Numbered from the stretch's first letter, positions 40,395-49,222 are shown. The stretch: 64,000 nt of DNA from Mytilus californianus (GCF_021869535.1 NW_026262679.1:92711982-92775981), one strand, 5' to 3'. The notes: generated by a model not told the origin, from the letters alone. Numbers and translations are program-made.

Positions 40395-40672
40395 CTAAGT
40401 ATAATAAAGAAAGTTCTAGGAAAAAGAAAAAGAAGAAGGATAGACAAAAGAAAGAGAAAGAAGATGATGGATCGGCTGTGAGAGGAGGTAGAGGTGGCAG
40501 AGGAGGTAGAGGTCGTGGTAGAGGTAATGTGCCTAGAGGAGGATATGGAAGAGGTGGTTTTGCAACCAGGGGAGCTAGATTTGGCAGTTCTCAACCCTCA
40601 CGACCAGTTGACAGTTCATCAGATTCTTCTGATTCTTCAGATGAGGAAAAAGAATCCAAGGTGAAAAGACAG
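40395..40672 (+). CDS. TEP1: TEP1 exon 6 with basic and RGG-repeat insertion
   Basis: ttgcag|CT ... CAG|GTAATT. (A)KYNKESSRKKKKKKDRQKKEKEDDGSAVRGGRGGRGGRGRGRGNVPRGGYGRGGFATRGARFGSSQPSRPVDSSSDSSDSSDEEKESKVKRQ. KYN aligns to human LAKYNPRKHRAKRH. Frame is continuous with exons 5 and 7. Confidence 0.8.
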
Positions 40673-41460
40673 GTAATTTTGTGAAAACTGTGTGTCTACC
40701 TTCTAGGACAATTAAAAAAATCTGCCTGTCTTACAAAACAATTACAAGTTAGGATGCAACCATTTAAACTCATTCAAATAGTAAGTTGTTTACAAATGAA
40801 TAACATGTTTATTTATTTTGACCTACATTTTATTGGTTTTCAAGTAAACATTTTTTTCAAGACAAACAGTGAAATAGACACTAGAAGGGTCTGAAATTTT
40901 TAAGATATAAACAAAGAAATTCAGGCCTTTCCATTTTAACATAATCACAGCTCATACAGTCAAGTTCTTTCTTTTAGTAGTATAGATTCTACAAAATCTA
41001 AATCTTTATTCCTATGAAGACCGTTTACTTATTGATGAAAACAATTATTTTTCAATATACTGAACTCTACAGTGGCATAACATTGCAACAAAAATTAAAG
41101 ATGTAAAAATTTTGAAGTATTCCGAGAGATGTATTATAATTACCTATTTCTTATTCAATGTTTTTACCATGAAAGTAGTTTTCATCTTCAAACATACTGA
41201 ACCTTATGTTAGGAACATCATCAGATGACGTTGTTTGTCATTTTGGGAATCTGATGTTCATGCAGATCATTAATTAATCTCAGGTTAATTAAATTTATTC
41301 GCCAATTTTTTAGACTCGGAGCAATTAAGGGTTTGAAATATTGTATTGACACCTGTCTATTGTTGAAGACCATATGTTGATATCTAGCAGTCTGTTTGTT
41401 ACTATGTTGATGGGTAGATGTCTAAATAACATGCATTATTTATTTGTTTTTAATTCTTAG

Positions 41461-41594
41461 ATATCAGATGTTGTCTATGATGATAAAGAATCAAAAGAAG
41501 AGATTGAGAAGACGTCTTTTTCTCTGAAACAGCTGATCAGAAAACTACATATCACAGAGCCAGTGTACCATGTCATGGCGCTTATTGGTAAAAA
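41461..41594 (+). CDS. TEP1: TEP1 exon 7
   Basis: ttcttag|ATA ... AAAA|GTATGT. ISDVVYDDKESKEEIEKTSFSLKQLIRKLHITEPVYHVMALIGK aligns to human PRFTLKKLVQRLHIHKPAQHVQALLGYR. Confidence 0.85.
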
Positions 41595-42080
41595 GTATGT
41601 ACACTTAGGAAATGAATTAGTCTGTACATCTAAAAACCCAAAAACTCAGCATAACATGCTTGTGTAAAGCATGTAAAATAAAATGTGTGTTTTACAGATA
41701 GTACAGAAAACCCACTGCTGACTTGTTTATATTGCTGAAAATAATAATTAGAATTTATAAACTATGTGTGTTGATCAAGTTTTTGTCCAAAGAGTATAAA
41801 TCTATTGACTAGAAAATTGAGATTTAAACATTCTTTGTATGAAGCTAATACCTTGGTAAAACTGCATGTTAAAATATAAATGAAATTTAATCAAACATAT
41901 ATATCTTCAAAATGATTATCCTAATACATTTGCCTCATTGTGTTGCTAGTGTAGCAGAGTTAAAACGCAGCTACCATCACCTGTAATCTTTTCTATTGTG
42001 TTCTATCACTTATCGTCATATACTCTGAAACTGACAGACAGAAACACATTTTAATCATAGCCACAATTATTATTTGATAG

Positions 42081-42238
42081 GTATCCAGAGACATTAGAGG
42101 ATTTTTACAAGTGTCGTCTTCCAGGACAATGGGAAGAAGAAAAGGCTGGAAAAAGAATGAAACTTCCTGTACCAGAGACTTGGGAAACTCAGGTTTCACT
42201 GAAAGGAAACAAAGCATCAACATGGGAAGACTTAATAG
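42081..42238 (+). CDS. TEP1: TEP1 exon 8
   Basis: ttgatag|G ... ATAG|GTATGT. KYPETLEDFYKCRLPGQWEEEKAGKRMKLPVPETWETQVSLKGNKASTWEDLI aligns to human YPSNLQLFSRSRLPGPWDSSRAGKRMKLSRPETWERELSLRGNKASVWEELI. Confidence 0.9.
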
Positions 42239-42504
42239 GTATGTGTATTTTTATGATCACTCATTTGATTTTATCTTTCTTTCTTGATGGCTAATTATTT
42301 ATTTTTATTGTGATACCTATAGATTCTTCTTCTTTTGGGAGTGAGTTACAATGTTTCTCCCCTAAAAATAGTTGCATAAAAGTATAACAAAAAAATGATG
42401 TCAAGGTTTGATATTGACAATTTTCAGTTTTTCCTTTTGGGAGTTATGGTCCTTGGTAGATTGGAAAATAGGACCTGTATCCAAAAATCAAGCATAGAAA
42501 ACTA

Positions 42505-47300: not shown

Positions 47301-47594
47301 AGATATTGATTGATAATTGGTATATAGTTTTATCATGACAAGTTACAGATCAAGTTCAAATTTTTGTTTCGGTCTAATAATTTTGTGCAGAGTTATGGTC
47401 CTTGGACTTGAAAAATTCACTCATATAATCAGTTTTCAACATTGTTTTTAGTCATGCTTGAAGATATTGAAATGATATTTACTTTTTGTTGACACCATGA
47501 CAAGTTATAGAACAAGTTAGCATTTTGTTCCAGTATAATGAATTTTTACCCAGTAGGGGACTATGTATTGCCATGCACTACTCTCAGAATGCTT
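44392..47594 (+). mobile_element. TIR element (host element) interrupted by a nested Helentron-like copy; filled site
   Basis: Head 44392-44505 (tttagtcccctaccgacaaagtcgaaggggactttagg..ccacactttt). Then the Helentron-like insert 44506-46741. Then tail 46742-47594. Head plus tail together equal the uninterrupted copy at 50596-51413. Confidence 0.8.
44506..46741 (+). mobile_element. Helentron-like element, three-array variant, nested insertion
   Basis: Perfect 5' hairpin ATACGACCGCAATTTTTGCGGTCGTAT, then the 150-160-bp satellite (about 5.5 units, 44560-45480) and the junction. The 35-bp minisatellite follows at 45670-45890 and the 125-143-bp satellite (about 5 units) at 45940-46540. The 3' terminus ..GCGAAGCAT ends at 46741. 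Confidence 0.8.
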
Positions 47595-47710
47595 GTTATT
47601 ATTATTATTATTATTTTTTCATAATTATTATTGAAAATAATGTTTATTCATATGTTTTAATGAGTAACATGTATTTGTATCTTAAACATGTTTGCTTGAC
47701 ATAATTTCAG

Positions 47711-47801
47711 AGACAAGTTGTCAACAGTAAACAGTTCCCATTCAGATTTTTCTCTGCATATGAGGTTTTGGTTAATCTTGAGAAAGACTTTGAGGAAAGC
47801 C
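47711..47801 (+). CDS. TEP1: TEP1 exon 10
   Basis: atttcag|AGA ... AGCC|GTAAGT. RQVVNSKQFPFRFFSAYEVLVNLEKDFEES aligns to human KSVIHSRQFPFRFLNAHDAIDALEAQL. Confidence 0.85.
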
Positions 47802-49023
47802 GTAAGTAATCTTTTTGTATGTAAACGACTGATTTATTAACAAATTTTGTCCTTTAATCCTGTCTGGCTATATATACATCTAGAGGATATGGAGAGATTT
47901 TTATACAACCACAAAACTTTTGTTTATAAATGCAAGAATTGAAAACAATAGTACTTTTGGCGCAGTTGGACAGAGGACTTGAGATATTTTAAGTATACTG
48001 TTGTTATACAGGCAATTGTGCCATTCATGAAATACATATATTAGACCTCACCTGAACCCTAGGTCTATGTCAGCTATTGCCATCACTTGGCATCTATCAT
48101 CAGTTTTCTTTCATCGTTTACATTTATACTGTTACTATAAGTTAAGCATAAGGTTTTAAAACCACAGCTTCTGTCTAATTCTTAAAAACGAAAGCAGTTA
48201 GAGTAAAACTGATATGCATTACAATGGTCAGCAGATCAAGAATAAAACCTTGGTTTTAACACCCTAAATCATCAGTTGACTCTTTAACAATTATTGCCCT
48301 TAGATGGGATTTTTTACCTATTTTGTTGTCTTTTTCTATAATCTTGAAAACTACAAAAGATCAACAGAAGCTTTAAACAGCATTAATGATCAGCTAATCT
48401 TAATAAGTCCGCATGATAGAATTTGTCAGTAATTTCTTTTTAGGAGTTATTGCCCTTAGACGAAATTTTTTCAATAACCGTGTTTGTGTTTTTAGCTATG
48501 ATATTGAGAACTTTAATAGATTATGATAGAGATCTACAGTCAACAGCAAAAATTGTCATCAAGATAATATCTGCAAATAAATACACATAAATGAACCTGT
48601 AATTTGACTCCTTATAGGAGTGACTTCCCCTATAATGATTTTAGATATGGCAATCAATTTGAAGAAACTAAACAGCAAAAATGACAGCAAGACAAGATCC
48701 TCAACAATATAAAGGGTTATATCAGCAATTGGCTCCTTTTCAGTCTCGCTGGATCCTGTAGTTTCTTAAAAAATTCAGTTTTAGATATTTTGCAGACAAG
48801 GGTGCATCATCTTAAAAGAATTAGGGCCAATATAAGTAGGTTTCCATCTTCATATCAATAAAAAGAAAACAATGTGTCAATGCAAGAAGCTTAGCACTAT
48901 GAACTCCAAGCAACACAAAAGGTATAAATTTGCTAAAAAAACCCTTGATCTGTACGTTTAACAATTGAACCAAAATGATTCTTTTTTTTATCTCTCAATA
49001 TATACAACTGATTTTATTAACAG

Positions 49024-49222
49024 AAAACAAGATTGTACAAGAGGCAGAGATTGCAGCCCAGTATGCAGCATTGGGAATTCCTCAACCAAGTGAGCGTGCC
49101 AGAGGTCGTGGTCGCGGTCGTGGTAGGGGGAGAGGTAGAGGACGAGGAGGAGGGGCAGAAGGAGAAGTACAATGGTGGATAGAGAAGAGAAACAAAAAGA
49201 AAGCTGAAGCAGGAAAAGCTAA
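49024..49222 (+). CDS. TEP1: TEP1 exon 11 with (RG)n repeat
   Basis: ttaacag|AA ... GCTAA|GTATGT. QNKIVQEAEIAAQYAALGIPQPSERARGRGRGRGRGRGRGRGGGAEGEVQWWIEKRNKKKAEAGKAK. Phase is compatible with exons 10 and 12. Homology to human is weak here, so a missed small exon in 47802-49023 cannot be excluded. Confidence 0.6.

Follow-up and report, generated by a model that had tools for sequence, protein, structure and literature searches.

Arginine-glycine tracts in two TROVE loops of a mussel TEP1 gene and their distribution among TEP1 orthologues

The TEP1 gene and its two RG-bearing exons

We analysed a stretch of Mytilus californianus DNA of 64,000 nucleotides (nt), referred to here as the window, which carries on its plus strand a multi-exon gene that starts with an ATG at position 30632 and runs past the window end (64,000). 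Judged by its sequence, this gene is a mollusc orthologue of TEP1, the vault- and telomerase-associated protein, and two of its exons encode clustered arginine-glycine (RG) repeats within the TROVE domain. We consider it fairly probable that these tracts are genuine, constitutively coding and ancient or regained parts of invertebrate TEP1, which lie in disordered TROVE loops and are likely to act as flexible RNA-binding arms, whereby RNA binding, methylation and regulation are what we infer.

The DNA is AT-rich eukaryotic sequence with about 32% GC. The exons were rebuilt by hand from reading frames and GT-AG boundaries and subsequently checked with homologues by tblastn, in which bivalve TEP1 proteins matched co-linear exons at 31.1-63.1 kb of the window. 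Based on Pfam domains, tblastn and the matches to bivalve TEP1 proteins, the partial gene (30632..64000, +) extends from the start codon through TROVE, DUF5920 and DUF4062 into a NACHT-like nucleoside triphosphatase (NTPase) domain. The TROVE domain lies near the N-terminus of the spliced protein (Pfam PF05731, E = 2.2e-107) and is followed downstream by DUF4062 (PF13271, 60 bits, cutoff 24.7). DUF5920 (PF19334), the vWA-like end of the TROVE module, gave a weak match of 19.5 bits, which is below the cutoff of 27, and the exon model is incomplete there. For the NACHT-like NTPase, the profiles AAA_16 (34.6 bits, cutoff 32.6), AAA_22 (28.7 bits, cutoff 27) and NPHP3_N (25.1 bits, cutoff 24.8) all scored above their cutoffs; the NACHT profile itself remained below (21 bits, cutoff 26.7), and a Walker A motif, GKAGTGKS, is present.

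Homologues were searched with the spliced, low-complexity-trimmed protein of about 1,000 amino acids (aa), duplicated to 2,006 aa. The best named matches are bivalve TEP1 proteins (Pinctada, Pecten, Mizuhopecten, Mercenaria and others) with 54-57% identity in the best local alignment, and identity to Pinctada TEP1 across the matched exons is 65%. The top 120 matches are all 1,190-2,885 aa long, and all those with a descriptive name are called TEP1 or TROVE-domain protein, the remainder being unnamed or “hypothetical protein”. Full-length co-linear orthologues have WD40 matches in Pfam, and the corresponding part of the gene falls outside the window. The domain profiles, the top matches and the co-linear exons thus agree with the first-pass annotation of this DNA, which had already named the gene TEP1.

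Both RG-bearing exons are flanked by canonical GT-AG introns and join in frame with the conserved TROVE blocks on either side, in order FDEYQLA (upstream), FSLKQLIRKLHI, FPFRFFSAYEVL and LIQRYRKALDTAV (downstream). Splice sites and translation agree on this point, so that the two tracts indeed lie where they had first been noticed, in frame between conserved TROVE blocks. They had been assigned to exons 6 and 11; counted from the ATG at 30632 these are coding exons 5 and 10, an offset that is immaterial.

The first tract lies in loop 1, whose N-terminal anchor is encoded by the exon ending in ..KFPDFDEYQL(A) (38215..38311, +; splice sites, translation). The motif is near-invariant, and Q-L-x-K-Y-N is invariant in an alignment of 40 sequences. 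Essentially all of loop 1 is encoded by the next exon (40395..40672, +; 278 nt; splice sites ag/CT...CAG/gt), the product of which is (A)KYNKESSRKKKKKKDRQKKEKEDDGSAVRGGRGGRGGRGRGRGNVPRGGYGRGGFATRGARFGSSQPSRPVDSSSDSSDSSDEEKESKVKRQ with the block order AKYNKESS-RKKKKKKDRQKKEKE-DDGSAV-RGGRGGRGGRGRGRGNVPRGGYGRGGFATRGARFG-SSQPSRPV-DSSSDSSDSSDEE-KESKVKRQ. According to the translation and codon listing, this comprises a lysine-rich basic block, RKKKKKKDRQKKEKE (40418..40462, +), RGG/RG tract 1, RGGRGGRGGRGRGRG NVP RGGYGRGGFATRGARFG (40481..40585, +), and an acidic serine cluster, DSSSDSSDSSDEE (40610..40648, +), which looks like a set of casein-kinase-2 sites and which the first-pass annotation had also reported behind the tract. 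The C-terminal anchor, ..FSLKQLIRKLHITEPV.., is located in the exon at 41461..41594 (+; translation, splice sites, tblastn, alignment).

The second tract lies in loop 2. Its N-terminal anchor and the start of a long helix (residues 616-650 of the structural model described below) are encoded by the exon with ..SKQFPFRFFSAYEVLVNLEKDFEES (47711..47801, +; splice sites, tblastn). The loop exon proper (49024..49222, +; 199 nt; splice sites ag/AA...TAA/gt) has the product ..NKIVQEAEIAAQYAALGIPQPSERARGRGRGRGRGRGRGRGGGAEGEVQWWIEKRNKKKAEAGKAK and ends in ...IPQPSERA(RG)8RGGGAEGEVQWWIEKRNKKKAEAGKAK, in which tract 2, RA(RG)8RGGG, occupies 49095..49154 (+; codon listing) and is succeeded by a Trp-Trp/lysine-rich segment, VQWWIEKRNKKKAEAGKAK (49167..49222, +; alignment), predicted to be helical in the model. 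The exon with the C-terminal anchor, ETPYDPSLIQRYRKALDTAV...TIVLCDVGENM, also encodes the first vWA-like strand (49529..49709, +; tblastn; helix 707-727 and strand 732-741 of the model).

Both tracts have the attributes of an RGG/RG box, namely clustered repeats, here RGGRGGRGGRGRGRG and (RG)8RGG, a tri-RGG/tri-RG spacing and a location in a disordered region, the disorder being taken from the homologous segments of the model.

The Trp-Trp/lysine-rich segment (VQWWIEKRNKKK) deserves mention in its own right: a W(W)xxKK motif can be aligned between molluscs and sea urchins, and in a shark the counterpart reads ..IHWWVTKRLEQL... The segment may represent an as yet undescribed functional element at the junction of TROVE and the vWA-like domain of TEP1.

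Coding DNA and translation of the tracts

In a scan of all six frames of the 64-kb window, runs of at least three RG/RGG units were detected at these two sites and nowhere else; the idea that the RG runs are a by-product of local repeat DNA was ruled out on this basis, and the tracts belong to this one reading frame and do not stem from the abundant repeats of the introns.

A perfect (CGTGGT)n-type coding microsatellite had been proposed at 49095-49140, together with a likely length polymorphism. At this site, Tandem Repeats Finder (TRF) identified the unit GGTCGT with a period of 6, 3.5 imperfect copies and 86% matches at 49104-49124 only, and the ten arginines of tract 2 are encoded by five different codons (AGA four times, CGT three times, and CGC, AGG and CGA once each). 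The DNA of tract 1 has an imperfect 9/18-nt periodicity with 82% matches. Near-perfect tandem repetition of the DNA was thus found at neither site, synonymous codons are mixed, and the microsatellite was dismissed; the imperfect, codon-heterogeneous DNA likewise weakens the case for a length-polymorphic site. From the varied arginine codons and the irregular DNA repeat we conclude that the tracts are maintained at the protein level. In the mRNA of a related bivalve the tracts use different codons again.

This mRNA is represented by Logan contig SRR5588588_10340 (8,636 nt), which originates from a bivalve with about 62% identity to the window and holds a single 2,752-aa open reading frame (ORF) at 67-8325 (protein P0167). 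Since this single ORF is free of introns, the contig corresponds to a spliced mRNA, and it keeps both tracts (...SGRGRGRGRGRAGALAFRGRGRGAPRGGR... and ...HARGRGRGRGRGRVKLNDKNWWIEKKKKK...). The site-2 tract is also present in a protein of about 2,699 aa (P0182) from a cluster of four mRNA-sized contigs (9.4-10 kb). Removal of the tracts by splicing, which the first-pass annotation had named as a finding that would speak against its proposal, is hence not what is seen in the related mRNA. Moreover, neither loop exon is a multiple of three in length (278 nt, mod 3 = 2; 199 nt, mod 3 = 1), so that skipping either of them would break the downstream TROVE frame, and an exon-skipping isoform was rejected for this reason.

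A remaining variant would be that the RG segments are spliced out in the source species as in-frame cryptic introns (exitrons), which would result in a protein without tracts. Theoretical exitron sites do exist, namely an in-frame pair of GAG/GTAGAG ... TTCTTCTGATTCTTCAG/ at 40488-40640 (153 nt), whose acceptor follows the TTCTTCTGATTCTTCAG tract, and a donor-like site, CAA/GTGAGC, at 49090, and some public gene models omit the RG segment. However, the mRNA contigs of related molluscs retain the tracts, most candidate acceptors are embedded in purine-rich sequence that has no polypyrimidine tract, tract 2 with about 60 nt is short for an intron, and conservation of the tracts at the protein level across phyla argues for translation. 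We consider excision by exitron splicing extremely improbable.

In public databases, breaks in the gene models are frequent at the segments that code for RG; the proteins concerned are those of Branchiostoma belcheri and B. floridae (P0189, P0191, P0002), Mya (P0174), Patella (P0098 and P0268) and Mizuhopecten (P0169). Two amphioxus models skip the site-2 exon, and one partial model ends in what is apparently the same exon read in a shifted frame (..WKRAWRRAWWWAWQG). For Patella, TEP1 is divided between two models, the upstream one of which stops right after the site-1 RG/acidic block, and the Mizuhopecten protein is devoid of the site-1 RG block found in Pecten. These cases may be due to mis-annotation, alternative splicing or real differences. 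It is at these low-complexity exons that public models appear to break, skip or frameshift, which matters for the annotation of invertebrate TEP1.

Distribution of the tracts among orthologues

In 285 TEP1/p80-like proteins, conserved motifs on either side served to delimit and extract the two loops, whereby site 1 refers to the sequence after YQLAKYN, site 2 to the sequence between FPFRFFSA... and RYRKALD, and a tract was counted if at least three RG were present. A site-1 tract was found in 16 of 254 proteins, mostly from spiralians, and the members of this automated set that bear a taxon name come from Pinctada, Pecten, Mercenaria, Mya, Mactra, Potamilus, Batillaria, the nemertean Lineus, the annelid Capitella and the rotifer Adineta. 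Tegillarca and Patella (by inspection) and the amoebozoan Flamella aegyptia have one as well. At site 2, a tract is present in 38 of 231 proteins from protostomes and deuterostomes, including nearly all sampled bivalves and gastropods, the brachiopod Lingula, the nemertean Tubulanus, the starfish Acanthaster, the hemichordate Glandiceps and Branchiostoma lanceolatum; such tracts also occur in several short p80-like proteins of protists. The majority consensus of site 2 in the 40-sequence alignment is GRGRGxRG, and the run of the window is among the longest uninterrupted (RG)n runs of the surveyed orthologues.

The surroundings of the tracts recur as well. A lysine-rich start of loop 1 is common to nearly all invertebrate orthologues, the basic or RG block is succeeded by a D/S/E cluster in all but a few of them, and the charge architecture of loop 1 therefore recurrently reads KKKKKK, RG block where present, acidic D/S/E cluster. 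In the TEP1 proteins of Pecten maximus, Mercenaria mercenaria, Pinctada imbricata, Tegillarca granosa, Aplysia californica and Lingula anatina, RG tracts of similar length occupy the same loops together with KKKKKK and DSDSS blocks and the WW/K helix, and the only differences to the window concern repeat length and exact order. Many publicly available TEP1 predictions from invertebrates clearly show the tracts and, to go by these predictions, the window gene is one more such member and not a new kind of protein. As far as our literature searches reach, no description of RG/RGG tracts in TEP1 was found.

Among the vertebrates sampled, an RG run was found neither at site 1 (whale, snake, frogs, tuatara, fishes, sharks) nor at site 2 (fishes, sharks; no mammalian site-2 sequence was in the sample), and human TEP1 is not known to have RG repeats at site 2. 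The vertebrate proteins share the domain order of the window gene, i.e. TROVE with a vWA-like end, DUF4062 and a NACHT-type NTPase, and they keep the anchors YQLAKYN, LKxLIRxLH, FPFRF and RYRxALExA with variable basic loops at the same two positions. They differ in that these loops, which are K/R/P-rich in the sampled vertebrates, carry no RG/RGG repeats and loop 1 lacks a long acidic serine cluster. The first-pass annotation had expected nothing comparable at these positions in human TEP1, and the vertebrates sampled indeed have no RG run there, the positions being occupied by basic loops. Its description of the tracts as insertions can be kept for site 1, where the loop of the window has 111 aa compared to 31-63 aa in vertebrates, i.e. 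the vertebrate loop is about 50 aa shorter. It does not apply to site 2, where the loops of fishes and sharks are, with 78-84 aa, as long as the mollusc loop 2, so that the difference there represents a change of composition in an existing loop.

On the evolutionary origin, the same annotation had suggested a lineage-specific gain, by which this mollusc or its close relatives would have acquired additional RNA-binding surface. No sampled vertebrate has the tracts and those at site 1 are concentrated in spiralians, as such a gain would predict. However, the aligned positions are occupied by tracts in several phyla, among them deuterostomes (Acanthaster, Glandiceps and Branchiostoma lanceolatum) and a rotifer, and similar ones occur in the amoebozoan Flamella and in MMETSP protist proteins, which makes a gain restricted to this lineage very improbable. 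Tracts at the same positions across phyla imply that they are either old or have repeatedly re-evolved, and that the vertebrate condition is derived. From this comparison of orthologues, which includes deuterostomes, we conclude that the tracts are ancient or recurrent elements that were lost or replaced in vertebrates. The outcome is a corrected evolutionary direction, with invertebrates retaining the tracts and vertebrates lacking them.

Several points weigh against regarding the tracts as constitutive parts of invertebrate TEP1 with a role in RNA binding. The site-1 tract is absent in Mizuhopecten (while present in Pecten), heterobranch gastropods, Lingula and a chiton, and no site-2 tract is present in Mya, Lineus, Candidula, sea urchins and crinoids; from these repeated losses it follows that the tracts are not essential for TEP1 function. 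Since slippage readily generates RG repeats in disordered loops that are basic, their shared presence may in part be due to convergence. The models of Branchiostoma belcheri and B. floridae and of Mya (P0174), which skip or frameshift the RG segment, could be mis-predictions or could reflect real alternative splicing. Finally, neither a transcript nor a protein from the source species was found, and an exact look-up of the ORF around 49024-49222 in public assemblies yielded no match.

Taken further, the first two of these points lead to the view that the tracts are neutral low-complexity sequence, which is gained and lost by replication slippage in tolerant basic disordered loops and has no specific function. 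Tract length and sequence vary widely (3 to 13 RG), there are several losses within molluscs (Mizuhopecten vs Pecten; Mya at site 2), and the TEP1 proteins of vertebrates, sea urchins and sponges manage without tracts, all of which would be expected under neutrality. What neutral drift accounts for less well is that one and the same dipeptide repeat has recurred in these two loops for hundreds of millions of years, the heterogeneous codons, which do not form a homogeneous microsatellite, in a region of only about 32% GC, and the conservation of the flanking charge architecture (K-rich, RG and acidic Ser at site 1; RG followed by the WW/K helix at site 2). We regard neutral drift as rather unlikely.

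Structural setting, possible role and remainder of the locus

To place the loops in a structural context, residues 1-1190 of Solemya velum TEP1, which has a strong site-2 tract and a weak site-1 tract, were modelled with AlphaFold2 based on the 40-sequence alignment. The TROVE scaffold was predicted with confidence, with predicted local distance difference test (pLDDT) values of about 85-97 and loop flanks near 90. The pLDDT drops below 50 at residues 416-481 (loop 1, from the RG block to the acidic block) and 654-682 (loop 2, RGRGVINRGQGRGRGRGRGRDRGARGASG). Loop 2 is located between the long helix 616-650 and the WW/lysine helix 685-698, with the vWA-like β-strand 732-741 coming next, and the lysine-rich block of loop 1 is predicted to lengthen a helix. 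In a Foldseek search, the folded part of the model matched Ro60/Rsr structures with a probability of 1.0 (1yvp, 2i91, 9nep, 2nvo and 9l5y, of which 1yvp, 2i91 and 9nep are RNA complexes). Given the low pLDDT of both loops on a folded scaffold, the tracts are predicted to protrude flexibly from an RNA-binding module of the Ro60 type.

Ro60/Rsr have the same folded scaffold as the modelled bivalve TROVE, but sequence identity is only 12-15%, and the Ro60 chains of 460-530 residues were matched over about 700 alignment columns including gaps; the TEP1 loops therefore probably have no counterpart residues in Ro60. No TEP1 structure was found by PDB sequence search and Foldseek, and the sequence search gave distant TROVE proteins only. 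RGG/RG boxes bind RNA and are substrates of protein arginine methyltransferases (PRMT), and RGG/RG-box proteins such as FMRP, nucleolin, fibrillarin and hnRNP U are known to carry clustered repeats in disordered regions next to structured RNA-binding domains, as is the case here. Nucleolar RGG proteins also have neighbouring acidic serine-rich blocks, which resemble loop 1 of the window. In these proteins the boxes form terminal tails, whereas those of the window are internal loops of the TROVE module. The locus is otherwise a routine case of an RNA-binding protein with RGG boxes in its disordered loops, which opens no long-standing question.

To our knowledge, TEP1 is the least understood component of vaults and telomerase, and what we know of its RNA binding is nearly all mammalian. 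The p80-homology (TROVE) region was reportedly found to be sufficient for binding of vault and telomerase RNA (Poderycki et al. 2005, cited in PMC12547018). Loop 1 presents, after the invariant YQLAKYN, a three-part charge pattern of lysine-rich block, RGG box and acidic serine cluster, and loop 2 extends between the last long α-solenoid helix (FPFRFFSAYEVL...) and the WW/lysine-rich helix in front of the vWA-like domain. By analogy with other RGG boxes, the most likely role of the tracts would be that of flexible RNA-binding arms of low specificity, adding affinity or chaperoning to the structured RNA-binding ring that would hold small RNAs such as vault RNA. Methylation of the arginines and phosphorylation of the adjoining acidic serine cluster might tune the binding. 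At both positions, vertebrates still have basic loops, but no longer the RG repeats.

The composition of the loops would also be compatible with a different use, in which the tracts mainly serve as localisation or docking signals, either for nuclear or nucleolar import via lysine-rich and RGG sequence (e.g. of the transportin type) or as methylated RG bound by Tudor-domain proteins during ribonucleoprotein assembly. The KKKKKK that immediately precedes tract 1 is similar to a nuclear localisation signal of the classical kind, and RG-rich regions are established as possible transportin cargo signals and, when dimethylated, as Tudor ligands. However, the tracts are located on an RNA-binding module, for which direct contact with RNA is the simpler explanation. 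We judge a predominantly localising function distinctly unlikely, although the two roles are not mutually exclusive and the data do not separate them.

The proposal of flexible RNA-binding arms can be extended to the TEP1/p80 family as a whole. The RG tracts would then be an ancestral second RNA-contact element, kept from protists to amphioxus and lost only in the stem lineage of vertebrates and a few further groups, and vertebrate TEP1 would be derived in having no RGG. In invertebrates, recognition of the RNAs of TEP1, or of a different, perhaps G-rich set, would involve disordered arms regulated by methylation and phosphorylation together with the TROVE ring. In this full extent we consider the scenario unlikely. 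The presence of one or two conserved RGG-type TROVE loops in most surveyed invertebrate TEP1 proteins and their absence in the sampled vertebrates nevertheless suggests that mammalian TEP1 may not represent the ancestral mode of RNA handling, and the tracts provide two precise, deletable elements for RNA-binding tests in a non-vertebrate system.

Upstream of the TROVE domain, the first coding exon (30632-31348, +) encodes about 240 aa of Ser/Leu/Thr-rich degenerate repeats (..LSSRLGLSSGLSSRLGPSSKLTSSLL..). No Pfam match was obtained for this N-terminal exon, and the N-terminus of the Solemya model (residues 1-199) is wholly disordered, with pLDDT below 35. The closest relative found is a Logan mRNA contig of 5,671 nt (P0207), which is about 82% identical to the window exons from 52.2 kb onward; it begins downstream of both loops and is therefore uninformative with regard to the RG tracts. 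No protein with at least 90% identity was present in the searched protein collection, from which the source species seems to be absent, at least for TEP1. A scan of 30-64 kb with Rfam gave no match, and the minus strand of the gene region contains only repeat-derived pseudo-ORFs.

The introns of TEP1 and the sequence upstream of the gene harbor copies of a composite repeat, located at 44590-46540 and about 35.4-39.5 kb (+) and, in reverse orientation, at 6.4-9.5 kb and 15.5-18 kb. It consists of tandem arrays with units of about 162 bp, 35 bp and 135 bp, as judged from TRF and recurring pseudo-ORFs. This composite repeat resembles the satellite-bearing non-autonomous transposons reported in bivalves, to which it may be akin.

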